60,102 bases of DNA from a virus (IMGVR_UViG_3300022221_000008:1-60102); one strand, 5' to 3'; shown: positions 17,875 to 51,323, numbered from the stretch's first letter. Numbers and translations: made by a program. Notes: a model not told the origin generated them from the letters alone.

Positions 17875-18468
17875 CTAGAACCTCCACCCCGCCTCAAGCG
17901 CGATCCCATGCCCGGTCAGCCAGTTGGGCACCCCGTCGCCGGTGGATGTCTTGGTCGTGCCCCAAGCCTGGTAACCCGCCCGCAGGAGCATGGATTTCCA
18001 CTCAACCTGTAGGCCGCCCTTGATCTGCCCCACGCCGACCAGCTTTGTAGCGCGCGTGGTGTCGAAGGCCGCCGGCCCCACCCCAACACCGCCATAGATC
18101 GAGAACGGCCCCCACAGGGCCCCTACGCCCGTCACGGCCCCTCTCAGGCCGGTTATGCGGATCGTCTCGCCGTCGGCGGTGGATTGCTGGTCGTCGTCCT
18201 TGCCGCGTCCCTCGTTCCAACCATGCTGTTTTTGCCAATGGTGGAAGGCTTGCGCGCCAACCCACACCTCCAGCCCATTCACTACGGGGACGATGTAGCC
18301 GCCCTCGATTGCGAGCTCGTATCCGGGCTGTGAGTCACACTCGATATGATTGTGATTCGATACCTGATCGCAGGACAGTTGAGCGCCTTGCAAGAGAACG
18401 TAGGGTTCCGCCCATGCCGGTGCGGCGAGCAGGAGAAGCGGGGCAATGAGCTTGGGTAGGTCAGACAT
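17875..18468 (-). CDS. Outer-membrane beta-barrel protein (Ail/Lom/OmpA-barrel-like)
   Basis: Signal peptide ending AWA, alternating beta strands (IYGGVGVG, IKGGLQVEW, LRAGYQ), and a C-terminal LEAGWRF beta-signal. Confidence 0.7.
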   Translation of the reverse strand: MSDLPKLIAPLLLLAAPAWAEPYVLLQGAQLSCDQVSNHNHIECDSQPGYELAIEGGYIVPVVNGLEVWVGAQAFHHWQKQHGWNEGRGKDDDQQSTADGETIRITGLRGAVTGVGALWGPFSIYGGVGVGPAAFDTTRATKLVGVGQIKGGLQVEWKSMLLRAGYQAWGTTKTSTGDGVPNWLTGHGIALEAGWRF

Positions 18469-24961: not shown

Positions 24962-25618
24962 TCATTCCTCCTTCTTGGCGGGCAATGGCCAGTCCTCGGG
25001 CTCGTCGTCGGACAGCCACAGAACAAGGCGGTCGTATTGCCACTCTTTTTCGGCACTTCCGGCCCAGGCGGCGGCCCAGGCGGCGGCCCCGGCGGCGGCC
25101 CAGGCGGCGGCCCAGGCGGCGGCCCTGGCGGCGGCCCTGGCGGCGGCCCAGGCGGCGGCCCCGGCGGCGGCCCTGGCGGCGGCCCAGGCGGCGGCCCCGG
25201 CGGCGGCCCTGGCGGCGGCCCCGGCGGCGTCCCCGGCGGCGGCCCCGGCGGCGGCGGCGGCGGCCCTGGCGGCGGCCCTGGCGGCGGCCCTGATCTCGCC
25301 GCGCGCAAAAGCCCTGGCGGCTTCGATGGCCGTTCGCGGCCATGGCGATGTTCCGGTCTTCTCGTAAATATGCAGAACGCGAGCGGCACAATCCGCCATC
25401 CATAACCGCAAGCGGCGCTCGACATCCTTGTTTTCAAGAGCGACGGTGGAAGCGACCCACACCAGATCGCCGAACGACACGCCCGCGGACTTAGCATCGG
25501 CAGCACTGTACGGCCCCTTCCAGCGGTAGGCGCGGAGCTTTTTGGTCACGTCCTTGAAAACACCTTCGCAAGGCTTGAGCCGCCGCAGTTCTGCGATGGT
25601 GAGTGTCGGTGCGGTCAT
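24962..25618 (-). CDS. Imm5-like protein with Ala-rich AAA(W/R/G) repeats; paralog of 34377..34832
   Basis: LRLWMADCAARVLHIYE...PRTAIEAARAFARGEI followed by a tetrapeptide repeat tract. Confidence 0.7.
   Translation of the reverse strand: MTAPTLTIAELRRLKPCEGVFKDVTKKLRAYRWKGPYSAADAKSAGVSFGDLVWVASTVALENKDVERRLRLWMADCAARVLHIYEKTGTSPWPRTAIEAARAFARGEIRAAARAAARAAAAAAGAAAGDAAGAAARAAAGAAAWAAARAAAGAAAWAAARAAARAAAWAAAWAAAGAAAWAAAWAGSAEKEWQYDRLVLWLSDDEPEDWPLPAKKEE
25061..25292. repeat. 12-bp tandem repeat (GGCGGCGGCCCN), about 19 units
   Basis: Directly visible; encodes the AAA-W/R/G tract on the minus strand. Confidence 0.9.
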
Positions 25619-26965: not shown

Positions 26966-27226
26966 CCACCACCCGCACCTATCGCTACGGCGGCAAGTCG
27001 CTCAAGGTCACTTGGACCCGCTACGAGCGTTACACGGTGGTCCGTTACGAGTGGCTGTCATGAGCAGCGTAGAGACTTGGACCGATCCAGTTCTGTGCGC
27101 TGTGGCGGCGTGGAAGGACACGCCTAGAACAGCAAGGCCGGGTACTATCGTTGTTCAGTCACGTGGTAACTGTCAAAAACCCCGGAGCCGGTGTATCGAA
27201 GTCCGGCCCGCAGCGCACGCCCCGCA

Positions 27227-27583
27227 ATGAACATCACCCTGCCCTTCCCCCCGAGCGTGAATAGCCTTTATGCCGATGGCGCTAGAGGCAAATTCACGAG
27301 GAAGCGGCCAAAGTCCAAGGTCTATGTGAAGTGGCGGACGCTGGCGATGGGCGAGTTGCTTTTGCAAAAGGTTAAGCTGGTCCCTGGCCCTGTCAGGATC
27401 AGACTTCTCTACAGCCCGCCGGACAAGCGAAAGCGCGGGATCGACAATTACCCAAAGGCTGTGCTCGACCTGCTGGTCGATGCCGGTGTCATCCTAGACG
27501 ACGAGCAGTCGCTTAGAGGTTTCAGCGCCGATTGGGACGAAACTCGCAAGCCCGGCTGCTACATCACGGTGAGGCAGGTATGA
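27227..27583 (+). CDS. rusA: RusA-family Holliday junction resolvase
   Basis: LPFPPSVNSLY and PPDKRKRGIDNYPKAVLDLLVDAGVILDD motifs. Confidence 0.8.
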   Translation: MNITLPFPPSVNSLYADGARGKFTRKRPKSKVYVKWRTLAMGELLLQKVKLVPGPVRIRLLYSPPDKRKRGIDNYPKAVLDLLVDAGVILDDEQSLRGFSADWDETRKPGCYITVRQV

Positions 27584-27882
27584 TCAGCGAAATCGACATT
27601 TGGGGCGACCGCCTCATGGCTGATGGCCGCCAAGTTGGCGTGCTTTCTGGTGAACCCATCGACCTTAACCGTTTCCGAGACTTGATCGCGGAAATCCGTC
27701 ACGACCCGCGCTCCGAAAGCCGTCCCGACCTTGAGGGAGAGATCGACGATCTTGGGGCGACCGTTGGAAGTCTTGAGTGTGAAAATGGCGGTCTTAGGGA
27801 CGAGATCGAAGACTTGGAGGCCGAGCGCGACGAGTTGCGGGAAAAGATAGCGGCCCTAGAGGCCGAGTTGGGGGCAAAATGA
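27580..27882 (+). CDS. Hypothetical coiled-coil protein
   Basis: Acidic heptad repeats; ATGA overlaps. Confidence 0.55.
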   Translation: MISEIDIWGDRLMADGRQVGVLSGEPIDLNRFRDLIAEIRHDPRSESRPDLEGEIDDLGATVGSLECENGGLRDEIEDLEAERDELREKIAALEAELGAK

Positions 27883-28925
27883 AAGCCTCTTTGGATTCCG
27901 CTAAACTCTTGGCGGCACTTAAGCGAGCCTCTCTCGCGGCAGAGCGCGATGGCATATGCGGGCATGTCCTGCTGATTGCCGAGGGCGACCTCTCCGTTCA
28001 AACCACCGACATGGTGATCTCTTACAAAGAACATCTGGACGCCAAGATTGAGTCCGGACGAACCGTCGTCAATGCCGCGCTCCTTTCCAAGGCTCTTAGG
28101 GGTGGGCCTGTAAGTCTGGCGCTTGATGACCATACCCTTGCGATTCAATCCGGTGACGCCGTGGCGCACCTGCAAACTCTTGGGCCGGATGCGTTCCCGG
28201 AAAGCCTGGGCTTCAGCAAGGACTACCCGTGCCAGTTCGTTATGGATATCGAGGTCTTTGCCCAAGCCCTTAATTGGTGTCTGCCAAGCCTTGAGCCCGA
28301 GGATTCGGTGCGGCATCACCTAACTGGGGTCGAGTTACGCTATGGGATCGACCTGTTGTTCACCGGATCGGATGGAAAGATTCTGACACGACGTAGCCTG
28401 CCCGCCCCCCTGGGCGCCAACAATCTGCCGGAAAACGAGGCCGGCGCCCAATCAATCATTATCCCGAAAAAGTTTTGCCGTCTTGTGGACCAGCTCGAAG
28501 GCGACGGACTTTTCAAAATCAGCGATTCGGTCATATCGGTCGAGGCTGGCAAGCGCCTCATCATATCCAGGCTTCTCGATGGCTCCTATCCCGATGTGAG
28601 CAAGATGTTGCCAGATCGCTCAGCGAATAAGATCGTTTTCGGACCGGAGTTGACAAGCGCAATCGAGTACATCAAGGGACTCGGCTCCGGCAGGGTTTCC
28701 ATCAATGCAGCCGGCAAGACGGCGACGGTTGAAGGTGCGGCAAGCCAGGTAACGGTGCCTTGCGAGGGGCATGGGAAGATAGGTTTTGATATCGCTCATC
28801 TGTCGCGTGCCTGCAAAGCCTCAGACCGTCTCATTTTCTTTGTCGGGGAGCACTCCTGCTATCTTGGCGAAGCTGACACCGTGTTGTGTTCCATGCTGCC
28901 AGAAAGAGTTGCTGCCGCAGCATGA
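27879..28925 (+). CDS. dnaN: DNA polymerase III beta-clamp-like protein (divergent)
   Basis: 348 aa; SVQTTDM, RHHLTGV, GSDGKIL, IIIPKK and ISRLLDGSYPDV match DnaN motifs. Confidence 0.75.
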   Translation: MKASLDSAKLLAALKRASLAAERDGICGHVLLIAEGDLSVQTTDMVISYKEHLDAKIESGRTVVNAALLSKALRGGPVSLALDDHTLAIQSGDAVAHLQTLGPDAFPESLGFSKDYPCQFVMDIEVFAQALNWCLPSLEPEDSVRHHLTGVELRYGIDLLFTGSDGKILTRRSLPAPLGANNLPENEAGAQSIIIPKKFCRLVDQLEGDGLFKISDSVISVEAGKRLIISRLLDGSYPDVSKMLPDRSANKIVFGPELTSAIEYIKGLGSGRVSINAAGKTATVEGAASQVTVPCEGHGKIGFDIAHLSRACKASDRLIFFVGEHSCYLGEADTVLCSMLPERVAAAA

Positions 28926-28971
28926 CCCCCACCGCCATAGCCCGAGCCTACCACTGCCCGACGAGGCAAGC

Positions 28972-29205
28972 ATGACGCCGCATCAATCAAACACCCTGGC
29001 CTTTATAAGATCGTACTGGGCGGAGTGCGAGATAGGGCCAACATATGATGAGATCAAAGATTATCTCGGCCTCAAGAGTAAGTCAGGCGCCTTTCGTTTG
29101 GTAGATGCTCTGGTTGCTCGCGGGCTTGTGGAAAAGAACGCATTCGGCATTCGCTCCGTCCGCCCTGTCGGCTACTGCCCAACCTGTGGAAAACCCTGTG
29201 AGTAG
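28972..29205 (+). CDS. LexA DNA-binding-domain-like protein with C-terminal CxxC
   Basis: MTPHQSNTLAFI...GPTYDEIKDYLGLKSKSGAFRLVDALVARG. Confidence 0.75.
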   Translation: MTPHQSNTLAFIRSYWAECEIGPTYDEIKDYLGLKSKSGAFRLVDALVARGLVEKNAFGIRSVRPVGYCPTCGKPCE

Positions 29206-29620: not shown

Positions 29621-29812
29621 ATGGACATAGAAACGGCCCTGTGCACGATTGCGGACCACTATTATTCCAACGGTGCCAGAGACGGATGGAACAGGGCGCT
29701 TGCTGAGAAAGAGCCAGTGCCTGGCTCCAGACGTCCTCCTTTGCGAGCCTTCAAAGAGGCAATGGCATTTCTGAATGAGATGGCTAGACAACCCGATGAG
29801 CAAGGAGGGTGA
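29621..29812 (+). CDS. Hypothetical protein
   Basis: GGAGG RBS. Confidence 0.45.
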   Translation: MDIETALCTIADHYYSNGARDGWNRALAEKEPVPGSRRPPLRAFKEAMAFLNEMARQPDEQGG

Positions 29813-29813
29813 G

Positions 29814-30092
29814 ATGAAACCGGGCGTAATTTGCGTCATCACAAGGAAATCGGATGGCGTGGTTCTCGGCGTCGGGGCTGATTTCGATGCTGACCGCCCC
29901 GGCGGCTTCAGCCTGGAGCAAGCCCAAAACCGCCGCGCCAGAGAGCGCGCCAAGTCCGATTTTGTCAGAAAGCAATGCTCGGGCCTGATTTCCGATGGCC
30001 TTGACAGCTATCAGGTGGGGCAGATTGTGGATGCCCTAATCGGCCGAGACAAGATCGTTATTCAAACAGAGGCGGTCGGTGGTGAGGGCTAG
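29814..30092 (+). CDS. Hypothetical protein
   Basis: AAGGAGG RBS. Confidence 0.55.
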   Translation: MKPGVICVITRKSDGVVLGVGADFDADRPGGFSLEQAQNRRARERAKSDFVRKQCSGLISDGLDSYQVGQIVDALIGRDKIVIQTEAVGGEG

Positions 30093-30258
30093 ACAGCCCG
30101 ATGAGTCTGTGCCACAAAAGAGATGAGCCCAGCACCCTTAACGGGCCGGGCTCATACGCGGGTTGGTTTGGACGCCGGAACCCGCGCAGGCCATGAACAT
30201 AGGCCACAATCTCCTAAATATCAACCAGGTGTCCAAGCGTTTGGTCCGCTCCGTGTGC

Positions 30259-30425
30259 GGGCTGTTCTGTGGAGACGTGCAACATGCGTAAGGAACCCTT
30301 GGGCGCCGTTGTGGCTCGAAAAGTTCTCTTGCAAGGCGCATGGGCCAACCCGAAAGGACGATGTTGGGTAGCGCCCAGCCTTGGCCCCAGTGCCAGAAGG
30401 CCAGCACGTTTCCACAGAGCAGCCC
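30259..30425 (+). ncRNA. Candidate structured RNA E1 (167 nt)
   Basis: 22-bp closing stem 30259-30280 / 30404-30425 with 2 G-U pairs; inner CATGCG/CGCATG helix; shares sequence blocks with E2. Confidence 0.65.
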
Positions 30426-30435
30426 TAGCACTCAA

Positions 30436-30585
30436 GCGGGGGATTGGTGAAGGTGTGCAACATGCGTAGTGGACTCACAACCCTTGGTGCTGCGGCCCCA
30501 AGGCCACTGAACGATCCGCTCGCTTGCAAGGCGCATGTAGGCTGGCTGGTCGCTGGCTGGACCCACACCTTCACCAATCCTTTGC
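30436..30585 (+). ncRNA. Candidate structured RNA E2 (150 nt), paralog of E1
   Basis: 22-bp closing stem 30436-30457 / 30564-30585 with 3 G-U pairs; GTGCAACATGCGTA, AACCCTTGG and CTTGCAAGGCGCATG are shared with E1. Confidence 0.65.
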
Positions 30586-30610
30586 AAAAGCGATCACTGT
30601 GGCCCGCAGG

Positions 30611-30803
30611 ATGGGCGTTCTGTGATGCGTAGCGGCGTGGAAAGCAGACACGCTTTCGAGCAAGGTAAGGGTGTGTTGTCAGGAGAGGCTGAGAGGAAGA
30701 CGCTTGTGACCCTGACGAACGGCGGGATAACCAAGGAACAACTGCCGTGCATTGTGGCCCTAAGCCGGAGTAGCGTCCGGCCTACGCATCACAGAGCGTC
30801 TAT
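30611..30803 (+). ncRNA. Candidate tRNA-like structured RNA E3 (193 nt)
   Basis: 22-bp closing stem 30611-30632 / 30782-30803 with 3 G-U pairs; D-arm-like hairpin after a 2-nt linker; T-arm-like GCCGG/CCGGC abutting the 3' strand. Confidence 0.6.
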
Positions 30804-31288
30804 TGGAGGCCCCAGGGTTGACCTGTGAATGAGAATGGCCTACAAAAGAAAAGCCCCCGGATCGGTCGGGGGCGTCTACGCTGGATGATGGTTTGGCGGC
30901 CGAACCCAGCGCAGGAACGTCAATATAGACGAAACTCCCTGAAAATCAACCCGGCCGCCACAGATAGCGTCTCTGTTGCGAGCCCATGCGCGGGACTTAA
31001 AGGCGGCCGGACCAAGACGGCCAGGCTCTTGACGCAAAACCCCCGAGAAAGGACCACGAATCCCGTGGCTTGTGCGGCGGTCGCCTACATGGCTGCCGCA
31101 TGGGGCTCCAGTTGGAACCGGCAGACGGGAACCGTGCCGAGGCCCAGGAAGCTCGCTGCCCGCCTGCGCCGCTTGAGGCACGATGTAGGTTGTATGCTTG
31201 TCCGGCTCCATACGTTGCATGCAAATCCCCTTTGGCTGCGGCCAGGGGGGTTTTGTTTCTATCCTCACCACCGTTGCATGGACTTGAG

Positions 31289-31498
31289 ATGCTACTGAAA
31301 GACGCAAACGAACTAATCACCCTGGCGAGAGACGCGATCACCGAAACCCTGAACGCTGTCAGGGAAGATGGGGTATGCAGGCTCTGCCAGGCAAAACAGG
31401 GTGTACAGCATTCGGCGACTTGCCCTGTCTGGAGTTTGACGCAATGGCGTGGTGAATTTTGGCGGCGGAATGAGCCTGAATTGAAGCTTGAACCGTAG
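31289..31498 (+). CDS. Small Zn-finger-like hypothetical protein
   Basis: CRLC...H...C motif. Confidence 0.45.
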   Translation: MLLKDANELITLARDAITETLNAVREDGVCRLCQAKQGVQHSATCPVWSLTQWRGEFWRRNEPELKLEP

Positions 31499-31631
31499 GT
31501 TATGCCCAGAGCAATGGAGGAAAGAGATGAAAGCGCGCCGCCACCACAACAACAAAGGTTGTCGCCAGATCAAACGCGGCAAGACGCGCGATCAGGTCAA
31601 GCGGATGGCTGAGAAGCTTGGGATTCCTTAC

Positions 31632-31707
31632 GCGCCTGTAGTTCAACTGGCAGAACCGGACCCTCATAAGGTTCACGATCCAGGTTCGAATCCTGGCGGG
31701 CGCACCA
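31632..31707 (+). tRNA. tRNA with CAT anticodon (Ile2/lysidine type or elongator Met)
   Basis: Full cloverleaf: acceptor GCGCCTG/CGGGCGC, D arm GTTC/GAAC, anticodon arm GGACC-CTCATAA-GGTTC, T arm CCAGG-TTCGAAT-CCTGG, encoded ACCA end. Confidence 0.92.
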
Positions 31708-32009
31708 GTTCTCTGGAGGAAAACAGTTGGTTGTGTGCCTCCTGCGGGACTGAATCCTCTCTTAAGTTTCGTTCTTGTGGCTGCCCAACGGATGTTTTGT
31801 ATAGGAACCAGGAAACTGCCCTGAAAATAGAGCGTGGATCAGAGGAGGGAAAAGATGTCTAACAGCAGCTTTGATAAGTGTAGCTTTTTGGCCCAATTCT
31901 GTTGCTTTTTTGGGCTCCACTGTTGGGGGCCTTGGGGCAAGATTTATTTGGATATGTTCCAGAAGAAGCGTTGCGTTCGTTGTGGAAGATACAAAGAGAG
32001 GGCTCTTTG

Positions 32010-32360
32010 ATGACCTTCTCCGCCTTCTGGAGCGAGCAGATTCGCAAGGAAGCCAAGAAGGCTGCCGAGCGAGCATGGAACAAGGCACTGAAGGAAGCCA
32101 CGGCAGAGGAAATCCTGGCTGGCTGGCGCAGATCGAGGGACCACTACTCGACACGAGAGCGTCAGTTCATTCCCTTGCCGTCAACATGGCTCAATCAGGG
32201 CCGCTGGATGGACGAATATGGCGACGAGCCCAGCGCCAAAGAGTGGTACGACCGCAGGCATACGCCAAGATGCAGCCAATGCAAGGTGGAAGGCGTTAAC
32301 CTGATTGGCGAGCAGGGCAAGTGCCATGACTGCTACTACGGGCTGAGGGTAGTGAAATGA
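32010..32360 (+). CDS. Stand-alone phage replication-initiator C-terminal-like domain
   Basis: FSAFW...RKEAKKAAERAWNKA...QFIPLPSTWLNQGRWMDE motif. Confidence 0.6.
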   Translation: MTFSAFWSEQIRKEAKKAAERAWNKALKEATAEEILAGWRRSRDHYSTRERQFIPLPSTWLNQGRWMDEYGDEPSAKEWYDRRHTPRCSQCKVEGVNLIGEQGKCHDCYYGLRVVK

Positions 32361-45477: not shown

Positions 45478-46046
45478 GCGTTCTGGGCCTGATCCCCGCG
45501 AGGGGCGGTTCCAAGCGCATCCCGCGCAAGAACATCCGCCTTCTGGGCGAACACCCCTTGGTGCTCTGGACCATCTATCAGGCCAAGGAATCGGTCATGC
45601 TCGACGGCCTGGCGGTTTCGACCGAGGACCGGGAGATCGCCGATCTCTGCTGCGTTCATTGCGACGTGATCCGCCGCCCGCCAGAAATGGCCCACGATAC
45701 CGCCTCGTCCTATCCCCTGATGCTTCATGCGCTCGACCTCTGCGGCGGGGCCTACGAGTATCTCTGCCTCCTGCAGCCGACCAGCCCCTTCCGGGACGCC
45801 GACGATATCGACCAGTGCATCGCGGCCCTGAAGGTTTCGGGCGCCCCCGCCATGGCCTCCTTCACGCAAGGCGGTAAGGTGCCCAACGGCGCCATCTATG
45901 CCGCCCACACGTCCTGGCTAAGGGAGGGCGGGAACTTCGACGGCCCGGCGGTGGAGCCCTTCTGGATGCCGCCCGAAAGAAGTTTGGATATCGACACCGA
46001 GGACGACTGGAGCGAGGCCGAAACGGCCCTGATGGCAATGGCATGA
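45474..46046 (+). CDS. neuA: CMP-nonulosonic acid synthetase (acylneuraminate cytidylyltransferase, NeuA/LegF)
   Basis: IPARGGSKRIPRKN, LLQPTSPFR, PNGAIY and SLDIDTEDD motifs. Confidence 0.92.
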   Translation: MSVLGLIPARGGSKRIPRKNIRLLGEHPLVLWTIYQAKESVMLDGLAVSTEDREIADLCCVHCDVIRRPPEMAHDTASSYPLMLHALDLCGGAYEYLCLLQPTSPFRDADDIDQCIAALKVSGAPAMASFTQGGKVPNGAIYAAHTSWLREGGNFDGPAVEPFWMPPERSLDIDTEDDWSEAETALMAMA

Positions 46047-46990
46047 ACCCTTTCCAGGACCGCTACGACGCCTGCAACGGCGGCACCAATGCATCGAAAT
46101 ATGCCGAATTGCCCGATTTTCCGTGCATTATCGACGTGGAATTGACCTCTTCGTGCAATTTCAGGTGCTTGATGTGTCCCACCGGCAACAGATCGCTAAA
46201 GCGTCCTGCGGTTCTCATGACGGACAAGACCTTGCTGGCGATTATCGACCAGTGTGTGGAGCACGATACGGCGCTGCGCTTTATCGGCTGGGGCGAGCCG
46301 ACGCTGCATCCCGTCCTGGTCCCGGCCTTGCGGCAGGCCAGGGGCCTTCTGACGCACATCAACACCAACGGCTCCAAGATCACGCCGGAATTCGCCTTTG
46401 ACCTCGTGGAGGCCGGACTTTCCTCGATCAAGTTCTCTTTCCAGGGCGTCGATGCGGAATCCTACGAGGAGATGCGGCAGATCAGGTTTTTCGAGGGCAT
46501 GCTGAAGGCCATCAAGGTCATGCGAAGCGCACGCGGCGACAGAGCCCTGCCCTACATCGCGGCCTCGACCTCCATCACCTACGAGACGCCCAAGATGGTC
46601 GAGGACTTCCGCGCCCGGCTCGGGCCGTTGGTCGATCGCCTGTCGATCGGTCACACGACCTTCGACTTCATGGACATGAGCGCCGTGCGGCTCAGGCCGG
46701 GACAAAGGGCCATGCTGGAGCGCCTCAAGGGCTTGTCGAGCGATGCCAAGCAGCACCCCAGTCCTTGCCCGGAGGTCTTCCAGAAGCTCTCCATCCAGGC
46801 CGACGGGTCGGTGGTGCTCTGCTGCAACGATTTCGATGGCACGGTCAATCTGGGAAACGTGAACGCCATCCCGCTTTCCGATCTGTGGCGCCATCCCAAG
46901 ATCGAGGCCTACCGGAAACGGCTGGTGAGGGATGATTACGACGCGCCGCTGTGCCGGGACTGCTACGACTATATGGACCTGACCGGATGA
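46043..46990 (+). CDS. Radical SAM / SPASM-domain protein
   Basis: [21 protein letters not shown]...[10 protein letters not shown]...GNV and CRDC motifs. Confidence 0.9.
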
Positions 46991-50497: not shown

Positions 50498-51323
50498 TCT
50501 GACCGGCAAGGAGGGCGAGTACGTGGCCGAGGCCATCGCGTCCGGCTGGGTCGGTCCCGAGGGGCCGTTCGTGGAGCGTTTCGAGGGAATGGTTCGTGAA
50601 GTATCGGGTCGGCGCTGGGCCATTGCGACAATTACGGGCAGCGCGGCCTTGCACGCCTCCGCAACGGCGCTGGGTTTCGCCGGTGACTGTGTGGTGGTGA
50701 TGAGGAAGTCTTTTCCTGCCGCCAGGAATGTATTTCGTTCCCTTGGGTGCGACGTTGTTTTTTCTGAAGGCGGGGAAAACCATGATATTGCGGCCTATTC
50801 TCCGGGCACCATGAAATGGCCTGTGCTTGTGGACGCCGCCCCAGCCATAGGAAACAAACCCATCGGAACTGTTGAATGCTACAGCTTTGCCGCCAATAAG
50901 ACCGTGACCTGTGGACATGGCGGGGCGGTTGTCGGCGACGATCCGAGCTTGGAGGGCCGGGTCACAATGCTGATCAACAATCGCACCGGCAAATACAACT
51001 ACCGCATGGCCAATATCAACGCCGCCATCGGCTGTGCCCAGATGGAACGGCTGGAGGAATTCCGGGAGATCAAACGCAATATCTGGCAGCGCTATGCCGA
51101 TGCTGGGCTGCCCATGATCGACCGTGGCCCGAGCCGCTGGATGTCCACTATTGAGCAGCCGAAAGTTTTTTTCATAGGCGGTTTTAGGCACCGTCTAGAG
51201 GGCGTAGGCGGTTTTAGGCACCGTCTAGAGGCCGATTGGGGAATCAGCCTCCCCTGTTCCACATCTCTCACCAGGGATGATCAGGACAAGGTGATCAAGG
51301 CTTGCGAAGAATCCTTGCGATAG
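50475..51323 (+). CDS. legC: PLP-dependent sugar aminotransferase (LegC/DegT family), shortened
   Basis: IPLAVPNL...SGWV, GSAALH, DAA, SFAANKTVTCGHGG and YNYRMANINAAIGCAQME motifs. Confidence 0.8.
   Translation: MIPLAVPNLTGKEGEYVAEAIASGWVGPEGPFVERFEGMVREVSGRRWAIATITGSAALHASATALGFAGDCVVVMRKSFPAARNVFRSLGCDVVFSEGGENHDIAAYSPGTMKWPVLVDAAPAIGNKPIGTVECYSFAANKTVTCGHGGAVVGDDPSLEGRVTMLINNRTGKYNYRMANINAAIGCAQMERLEEFREIKRNIWQRYADAGLPMIDRGPSRWMSTIEQPKVFFIGGFRHRLEGVGGFRHRLEADWGISLPCSTSLTRDDQDKVIKACEESLR
51175..51231. repeat. Tandem duplication with 30-bp period inside the aminotransferase
   Basis: TAGGCGGTTTTAGGCACCGTCTAGAGG at 51175 and 51205 (GGFRHRLE twice). Confidence 0.9.

Follow-up and report, generated by a model that had tools for sequence, protein, structure and literature searches.

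A tandem array of three paralogous units, each closed by a 22-bp helix, is an orphan candidate family of structured RNAs in a tailed phage

Positions 30259 to 30803 of the virus genome IMGVR_UViG_3300022221_000008, an IMG/VR record of 60,102 bases (the whole of this stretch is hereafter the window, and all coordinates are counted from its first base), carry an array of three consecutive units, E1, E2 and E3, each of which is enclosed by a helix of 22 contiguous base pairs (bp) on the + strand. Judged by sequence, the three units are paralogues, and where the closing helices of E1 and E2 differ they continue to pair. We regard the array as an orphan candidate family of structured RNAs from a phage; its architecture is both unusual and testable. 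The explanation that we favour, at about even confidence, is that the + strand of an early rightward operon carries an array of Y-shaped non-coding RNAs, which would be released by RNase III and would act through conserved inner motifs.

Three consecutive units are closed by uninterrupted helices

The units follow one another with spacers of 10 and 25 nucleotides (nt), as follows.

E1, 30259-30425, + strand: unit of 167 nt; closing helix P1 formed by 30259-30280 and 30404-30425, with 20 Watson-Crick and 2 G.U pairs
E2, 30436-30585, + strand: unit of 150 nt; closing helix P1 formed by 30436-30457 and 30564-30585, with 19 Watson-Crick and 3 G.U pairs
E3, 30611-30803, + strand: unit of 193 nt; closing helix formed by 30611-30632 and 30782-30803, with 19 Watson-Crick and 3 G.U pairs

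Across the three closing helices, 58 of the 66 positions are Watson-Crick pairs, eight are G.U pairs and none is mismatched (0/66). A preliminary description of this DNA had given the same coordinates, unit lengths and gaps, with a contiguous 22-bp helix for each unit, and all of these were confirmed.

We scanned the genome for contiguous stems of at least 16 bp, with G.U pairs allowed, that enclose 60-220 nt on either strand. On the + strand of the whole 60-kilobase (kb) genome there are three qualifying stems, and these are exactly the closing helices of E1, E2 and E3; on the minus strand, the only stem recovered is the 17-bp perfect core of the E2 helix. A comparison set of 217 unrelated viral and metagenomic loci (1,920,765 bases, both strands) contains 76 stems of at least 15 bp, the longest of which is 21 bp, with none reaching 22 bp.

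Each closing helix encloses 106-149 nt of further predicted structure. When the units are folded in a 1.16-kb context, pairing probabilities for the closing helices are about 1, with the exception of the outermost pairs in E2 (0.24 for the four outermost pairs) and E3 (0.72 for the outermost pair). Uninterrupted double-stranded RNA of about 20-22 bp is a substrate of bacterial RNase III, as exemplified by the stems of pre-16S and pre-23S rRNA and by sites in T7 early transcripts, and all three predicted helices attain the uninterrupted length, about 20 bp or more, expected of such a substrate.

The closing helices have changed between paralogues while continuing to pair

The preliminary description held that the stems differ in sequence, apart from a segment shared by E1 and E3. 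The shared segment, GTTCTGTG / CACAGAGC, is found in both units; the broader statement needs correction, since the units are, on the sequence comparison, paralogous, with shared motifs and with 5' arms in E1 and E2 that are identical at 12 of 21 positions when aligned from the inner end. Among the 21 aligned P1 pairs of E1 and E2, nine are unchanged, nine have changed on both sides and still pair, three have gone from G-C to G.U, and none is broken, such that all 12 of the pairs that differ keep pairing (12/12). Each arm also fits its own unit best: the E1 5' arm can pair with the E2 3' arm at 13/21 positions, and the reverse combination pairs at 15/21, against 21/21 within a unit. P1 pairing is under selection.

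In E3, the outer half of the helix corresponds to the outer part of P1 in E1 (GGGC[T]GTTCTGTG), with one T-A pair gone from both arms and two G-C pairs now G.U. The inner half is formed by pairing of ATGCGTAG with CTACGCAT, the counterpart of a CATGCG / CGCATG pairing (P2) that is available in E1 and E2. Two motifs are shared inside the units:

Motif 1 (GTGCAACATGCGTA), + strand: 30277-30290 in E1, with an identical copy at 30455-30468 in E2; a 14-mer just inside the 5' arm
Motif 2 (TCnCTTGCAAGGCGCATG), + strand: 30325-30342 in E1 and again at 30520-30537 in E2; an 18-nt block that includes an identical 15-mer

The core of motif 1, ATGCGTA, is present in E3 as well (30625-30631), and its three occurrences in the 60,102 bases fall one in each unit. 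Motif 2 contains an 8-nt palindrome, CTTGCAAG, together with a CGCATG that is able to pair with the CATGCG of motif 1 to form P2. Outside the identical 14- and 15-nt stretches, the rest of E1 and E2 has diverged. Counted from the motif 1 ATG, motif 2 falls in one frame in E1 (offset 2) and in another in E2 (offset 1), so that it has been kept as nucleotides and not as protein. The predicted probability of P2 is 0.66 in E2. We propose that, with P2 formed, E1 and E2 would each fold as a three-way junction in which UUGCAAG, the part of motif 2 that carries the palindrome, lies in an asymmetric internal loop.

A covariance model was made from E1 only (E1 aligned to itself) and is weak; MAFFT failed to align the 3' arms of the units. 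Within the window, the best non-self match to this model is E2 (18.9 bits, expectation value (E) 0.0086). We note that the covariation evidence comes from three paralogues in one genome, and that gene conversion or shared descent could inflate it.

A possible fourth unit lies downstream of the array:

E4, about 30979-31108, + strand: possible degenerate unit, weak; closed by a bulged helix of about 11 bp whose inner end is CATGCG / CGCATG; fold z-score -2.2, and a pairing probability of 0.0 for CATGCG / CGCATG in the 1.16-kb context

Elsewhere in the genome, a 17-nt stretch of E1 (30323-30339) that includes the motif 2 palindrome recurs exactly at 18383-18399 on the minus strand (blastn-short E 4.7e-4), inside a minus-strand open reading frame (ORF; 17875-18468) with a signal-peptide-like start. 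This copy was considered as an RNA target and rejected; it has the same sense as E1, is not complementary to it, and lies within a coding region.

The structure belongs to the + strand

Every non-Watson-Crick pair in the closing helices reads G.U on the + strand (8/8), as the preliminary description had reported. Because the base counts of the array (A 119, C 147, G 177, T 102) make G:T and A:C about equally likely by chance, this asymmetry has a one-sided p of about 0.004. Predicted folds show the same strand preference. Fold z-scores against shuffled sequences are -7.1, -5.5 and -5.2 for E1, E2 and E3 on the + strand, and -4.9, -3.1 and -3.4 on the minus strand; the corresponding minimum free energies, in kcal/mol, are -90.2 versus -81.1 for E1, -76.8 versus -65.2 for E2, and -88.8 versus -64.3 for E3. 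For the array as a whole, the + strand gives -298.1 (z -5.4) and the minus strand -258.1 (z -3.4). Taken together, the asymmetry of the G.U pairs, the stronger folding predicted for the + strand and the pairing-preserving changes between paralogues support a structure that belongs to the + strand as a single strand. The preliminary description had gone further, taking the G.U pairs to indicate selection on RNA rather than on DNA structure; a + strand single-strand structure is borne out by all three lines of evidence, but G.U pairs do not separate RNA from single-stranded DNA.

The array lies in a rightward gene block and is bracketed by minus-strand candidate small-RNA genes

The phage is tailed, with direct terminal repeats. 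It encodes tail proteins, a large terminase (TerL) and a small terminase, and the direct terminal repeats are present on the record, although CheckV completeness is given as 62%. TerL is at most 42.7% identical to the TerL proteins of cultured phages, the nearest being those of Acidovorax, Limnohabitans, Caulobacter and Bordetella phages. The phage was detected in three sediment metagenome DNA runs, one of which is probably its source; the two remaining runs contain identical short contigs that do not cover 30155-30791, and hence provide no variants.

Between about 15 and 27 kb the genes point leftward; beyond 27 kb they point rightward. The rightward block around the array includes the following features.

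27191-27583, rightward block: RusA resolvase
27879-28925, rightward block: sliding-clamp-like processivity factor
28786-29205, rightward block: LexA/MarR-type DNA-binding protein
29775-30092, rightward block: ORF of 105 amino acids, upstream of the array
31227-31260, + strand: intrinsic terminator, likely the 3' end of the non-coding + transcript
31632-31707, + strand: tRNA-Met, anticodon CAT, 59.3 bits, about 830 nt downstream of the array
31902-32360, rightward block: DnaD-like replication initiator

The 105-amino-acid ORF is followed by about 1.75 kb without coding signal before tRNA-Met. The clamp gene lies upstream of the array and the DnaD-like initiator 1.1 kb downstream, and the + strand is the strand of the flanking genes, of tRNA-Met and of the terminator at 31227-31260.

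A unit of about 120 bp is present in two copies that bracket the array (30101-30224 and 30829-30949; 78% mean column identity), and each copy holds a candidate small-RNA gene:

Gene A, 30106-30224, minus strand: candidate small-RNA gene; promoter TTGATA-17-TATGTT at 30224-30196; fold z-score -3.2
Gene B, 30843-30949, minus strand: candidate small-RNA gene; promoter TTGATT-16-TATATT at 30949-30922; fold z-score -4.2

The predicted gene A transcript, with putative ends at about 30189 and 30106, is about 84 nt long; a hairpin at its 5' end is followed by a second, terminator-like hairpin and then by a U-rich tail. Gene B is predicted to give a transcript of about 73 nt (about 30915 to 30843), with a terminator stem at 30873-30853 followed by TTTTCTTTTG. 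The stem of the 5' hairpin differs between the two genes yet still pairs, and its loop, CCAAACCA, is conserved. The two promoters are sigma-70-like and are the only promoter matches in 3 kb; this number is near the expectation from shuffled sequence (1.2 +/- 1.0), but the matches stand at homologous positions in the two copies. Since the strong predicted terminator of gene B stops transcription about 40 nt before E3, and gene A starts about 70 nt beyond E1 and is directed away from it, the array appears to be kept free of minus-strand transcription. The weaker unit E4 comes after gene B, which suggests that one small-RNA gene and one E unit were duplicated together, with a later triplication of E in the first copy. 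The preliminary description had pointed to an RNA-gene island on account of the nearby tRNA; that tRNA-Met gene is real, and the two minus-strand candidate genes extend the island.

In the same region, an ORF of 111 codons (31527-31862, + strand) with a strong GGAGGAAAGAG ribosome-binding site runs through the tRNA-Met gene and is preceded by a 69-codon ORF (31289-31498); neither has a Pfam match. Farther away, a 12-nt unit, CGGCCCTGGCGG, is repeated 19.7 times at 25060-25292 (a 36-nt period was also scored) within a minus-strand ORF (24962-25618) that probably encodes a low-complexity repeat protein; a 30-nt unit is perfectly duplicated in tandem at 51175-51231, in a short intergenic gap; and a radical-SAM-like protein is encoded at 46043-46990.

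Searches for relatives

The preliminary description did not recognise a known family, and the Rfam results agree with it. With Rfam 15 at gathering thresholds, the whole window matches tRNA only; with E up to 10, the 1.9-kb region around the array gives nothing of note other than a sub-threshold match to ctRNA_p42d, and the array alone gives three matches of 11-13 bits, far below thresholds. A blastn search of 30100-31300 against 50,697 phage records and 72,556 plasmids found no similarity. Exact scans of IMG/VR recovered motif 2 at 52 loci and motif 1 at 80 loci; none of these 132 loci is blastn-similar to 30100-31900 or has a closing stem around the motif, and one (L091) is coding by eye. 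The two-motif pattern has no occurrence in IMG/VR, and the five metagenome contig stretches that carry it, which have neither blastn similarity nor a long stem, are taken as chance.

We also searched from the neighbouring genes. Exact-peptide scans of IMG/VR found no close relatives of the clamp or of TerL, and no relatives of ORF 29775-30092 were found in genome contigs. The DnaD-like protein has distant relatives only (at most 54% identity in IMG/VR, and 15 loci of mixed phyla in genomes); none of the 95 loci of these relatives matched the E1-only model at E up to 1, and none showed blastn similarity. There are no further copies of the array in this genome. The preliminary description had envisaged a collection of homologues and a check for covariation among them; with no external homologues found, that check became the comparison of paralogues described above.

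A search of the literature found no description of tandem stem-closed phage RNAs of this form, which is weak evidence of absence. PMC10690425 catalogues 10,006 candidate structured RNAs of viruses, taken from IMG/VR, and its supplementary tables might list the present locus.

Discussion

We favour, at the confidence given above, a model in which E1, E2 and E3 would be three paralogous structured-RNA genes located between the 105-amino-acid ORF and the DnaD-like initiator, in a rightward early/replication operon. Because predictions place neither a + strand promoter nor a + strand terminator in the interval from the upstream ORF to E1, and the first such terminator beyond is that at 31227-31260, the array would be read through from the operon. 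Each RNA would adopt a Y-shaped fold, with P1 formed by 22 bp from its 5' and 3' ends, a junction containing the conserved strand CAUGCG(UA), and variable hairpins making up the remainder; the conserved strand would pair with CGCAUG (P2), presenting the palindrome CUUGCAAG in an asymmetric internal loop. Host RNase III would then cut each two-turn helix, yielding three stable RNAs of about 125-170 nt with short terminal stems. The inner motifs would be the working surface through which these RNAs act in trans, either as a protein site or through a self-complementary kissing contact of 8-10 bp. The flanking antisense small RNAs may form long duplexes with the + transcript on both sides of the array, which would provide two extra RNase III cuts; the duplex of lambda oop with cII mRNA is a precedent for antisense duplexes cut by RNase III.

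Several observations weigh against this model. First, in the predictions the inner fold is not clearly common to the units: P2 has a probability of just 0.03 in E1, where forcing it costs 3.0 kcal/mol, and the E1-only covariance model gives E3 just 6.4 bits (E 5). Second, there is no homologue of the array outside this genome in any collection searched, so the covariation rests on paralogues and has no independent counterpart. Third, no + strand promoter is predicted near the array, and the three runs listed as carrying the stretch are all DNA runs, with no RNA run among them. Fourth, TROVE, reverse transcriptase, RNase III, RtcB and Nop proteins, which might have indicated a partner, are not encoded by the phage. 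Fifth, G.T wobbles stabilise single-stranded DNA too, and the strand asymmetry is no proof of RNA over single-stranded DNA of the same strand. Lastly, there are three ORFs that each open at a motif 1 ATG and close at the stop in the following motif 1, and the third of them, ORF3, has a neutral codon score in-frame (0.007), compared to -0.72 and -0.77 off-frame.

It is possible, although we consider it unlikely, that the units are instead cis-acting RNA elements, that is, RNase III entry sites or insulators in the early transcript, with the excised pieces having no function. The same structural evidence would suit elements that uncouple upstream from downstream genes in decay or in translation, or that titrate RNase III; T7 and lambda use RNase III sites in this way, and the location of the array inside an operon, with no predicted promoter of its own, fits such a role. 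However, a cleavage site needs the helix alone, whereas here the inner motifs of 14-18 nt are identical while the helices drift, and each helix encloses more than a hundred nt of additional predicted structure (106-149 nt). Moreover, three cis-acting sites in a row with no gene between them would have no obvious use.

Less probable still is a + strand single-stranded DNA structure that lies beside the initiator gene and serves replication, for instance as a signal for priming or for primosome assembly, or as an R-loop region. The array sits 1.1 kb upstream of the DnaD-like initiator and downstream of the clamp gene, and DNA hairpins tolerate G.T wobbles, so the strand asymmetry fits this possibility. 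In addition, long inverted repeats directly precede a distantly related initiator gene at locus L230, which belongs to a Clostridiales genome bin; there, at L230:4413-4696, an AT-rich core is surrounded by 12-nt iterons, four of them direct and four inverted. That element, however, is a classic origin, symmetric on both strands, and the present array is unlike an iteron origin in having no tandem repeats (30-31.3 kb) and no AT-rich stretch (GC 0.54-0.63). The minimum of cumulative GC skew is at about 26-27 kb, in the divergent promoter region, and not at the array, and known single-strand initiation signals are single elements rather than three paralogues with conserved loops.

The array might alternatively encode three (or four) small overlapping proteins, with the stems regulating their translation, which we judge very unlikely. 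The ORFs concerned, whose stop codons are TAG or TAA, are as follows.

ORF1, 30284-30469, + strand: from the ATG of motif 1 to the stop at the next motif 1 (ATGCGTAG overlap)
ORF2, 30462-30632, + strand: from the ATG of motif 1 to the stop at the next motif 1 (ATGCGTAG overlap)
ORF3, 30625-30828, + strand: in the same motif 1 register as ORF1 and ORF2; annotated as a gene by the source assembly

The start/stop register holds at all three junctions, the frames are open for 56-67 codons, and ORF1 and ORF2 are preceded, at a distance of 8-9 nt, by GGAG- and GAAGG-like Shine-Dalgarno sequences; the gene call and the in-frame score of ORF3 point the same way. Against this, ORF1 and ORF2 have codon scores of -0.40 and -0.28, similar to those of their own off-frames, where true phage genes mostly score 0.07 to 0.45 (several other called ORFs score below 0), and there is no codon-position periodicity in GC content across 30240-31450. 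The peptides of ORFs 1-3 match each other at about 8 of about 60 positions, and motif 2 falls in different frames in ORF1 and ORF2. ORFs of the region have no family matches in PHROGs (0/10) or Pfam (0/9), and a search of three ORFs against 5.8 billion proteins gave no match other than ORF3 to itself, with nothing for ORF1. ORFs of 50-97 amino acids are present in all six frames of this GC-rich stretch, and the 22-bp helices contain or adjoin the start codons and Shine-Dalgarno sequences. By every test run the units are non-coding, with ORF3 ambiguous on codon score alone; the preliminary description, which saw no credible coding sequence here and named a conserved protein across the region as a check on its proposal, holds up on both counts, as no such protein was found. 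We note that the upstream ORF at 30163-30291 likewise ends at motif 1, and the start/stop register is a curious coincidence.

Palindromic selfish repeats inserted into a non-coding gap (resembling miniature inverted-repeat transposable elements (MITE) or ERIC elements in their terminal inverted repeats) are the least credible alternative: a size of 150-193 bp, terminal inverted repeats of about 22 bp and a back-to-back, intergenic location do resemble such elements, but a single transposase implies similar termini, whereas here the arms fit their own unit (21/21) and not one another (13/21 and 15/21 crossed), no copies were found elsewhere in the genome or in the phage, plasmid, IMG/VR and metagenome searches, no target-site duplications were seen around the units, and the departures from Watson-Crick pairing are strand-asymmetric (8/8 G.U on the + strand).

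Relation to known RNAs

The array of structured RNAs that we favour has partial likenesses among known systems. As in RNase III-processed precursors, the flanks of each unit pair over about two helical turns, and the units would stand head to tail with short spacers in one transcript. The rRNA and mRNA precursors differ in what is enclosed: here the cargo is a 106-149-nt domain of its own, and T7 sites are local hairpins with internal loops.

The phage T4 tRNA cluster includes genes for two stable RNAs without an assigned function, species 1 and 2 (rnaC/rnaD). A search of passages in PMC2330249 gave no mention of them. These T4 RNAs, compared here by description only, are phage RNAs of about 120-140 nt encoded beside tRNA genes and made from a common precursor; unlike in T4, the tRNA of the present phage is 830 nt away, beyond a terminator. 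We know of no account of the T4 RNAs as a paralogous array with 22-bp closing stems.

Y RNAs of the YrlA type, which bind Rsr/Ro60, are often tandem paralogues and are sometimes phage-borne. Like the present units, they have a long stem built from the two ends of the RNA, opposite which sits a modular domain. No TROVE protein is encoded among the phage genes, although a host Rsr is possible, and there is no Rfam Y-RNA match at E of 10 or below; furthermore, unlike in YrlA, no tRNA-like module was seen in the units. The pRNA of phi29 is an RNA of 120-174 nt with a helix between its 5' and 3' ends, a three-way junction and intermolecular loop pairing, and the palindromic CUUGCAAG loop could likewise pair between molecules. 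The present units differ from phi29 pRNA in having no Rfam match, in belonging to a 60-kb phage with terminal repeats and both terminase subunits, and in being three differing early-region copies.

GOLLD and ROOL RNAs are often found near tRNA genes. They are about 580-800 nt long, as compared to 150-193 nt here, and the units have no Rfam match to them. As presented in the accessible part of 10.1101/2024.12.08.627333, GOLLD and ROOL are ornate, phage-associated, self-assembling RNAs of unknown function. A retron msr-msd is not indicated, as there is no RVT_1 match at E up to 0.1 in the 60-kb record. TIGR-Tas systems, according to the part of PMC12045711 available, pair a Nop-domain Tas protein with an array that yields 36-nt guide RNAs; the phage has no Nop match, the units are 150-193 nt long, and the region has no short tandem repeat. 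Type III toxin-antitoxin arrays, in which a terminator and a toxin gene come after short, nearly identical repeats, are likewise a poor fit, the units being diverged and long and the ORFs after the terminator having no Pfam match (no PADLOC search was made).

Genes A and B resemble lambda oop and the counter-transcribed RNAs (ctRNAs) of plasmids: each is predicted to give an antisense RNA some 75-85 nt long from a promoter of its own, with one or two hairpins and an intrinsic terminator, and each lies just ahead of replication genes. Over terminator B there is a match of 20.9 bits to the ctRNA_p42d model, which is below its gathering score of 50, and unlike oop and ctRNAs, genes A and B are two paralogous copies that bracket a non-coding array. 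Two further candidates were dropped: DnaA boxes in the arms of E1, for which there is by eye one near match and none in E2 or E3, and a hammerhead core in E3, where the string CUGACGA is present without an Rfam match.

Implications

A more elaborate form of the favoured model, which we regard as improbable in its full extent, is a self-contained RNA module of a novel type, in which RNase III frees Y-shaped RNAs from the early transcript by cutting both their two-turn stems and the duplexes formed with the two flanking antisense RNAs; the RNAs then assemble through the self-complementary CUUGCAAG loop, as dimers or higher forms, and act in trans during infection. Such an assembly might, for instance, act as a decoy that occupies an RNA-binding or RNA-sensing protein of host defence, or provide a scaffold on which replication proteins gather. 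The apparent duplication of gene A with E1-E3 and of gene B with E4 would mean, in that module, that the antisense and structured RNAs work as a pair.

Many phage structured RNAs have no known role, and few show, within one genome, such clear selection on fold and motif. The three paralogues of this array provide an internal covariation test, and its outcome supports a fold that is specific to one strand and has no match among described families. From closing helices of two turns one would predict a simple and testable maturation route by RNase III, and the presence of antisense small-RNA genes on either side suggests that the replication/early region of the phage holds a regulated RNA module. 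If the array is not expressed, it would still be an unusual strand-specific DNA structure beside a replication initiator. If it is expressed, it would be a new phage RNA family, with the 8-nt palindromic loop and the CAUGCG/CGCAUG helix as a handle for finding its partners.

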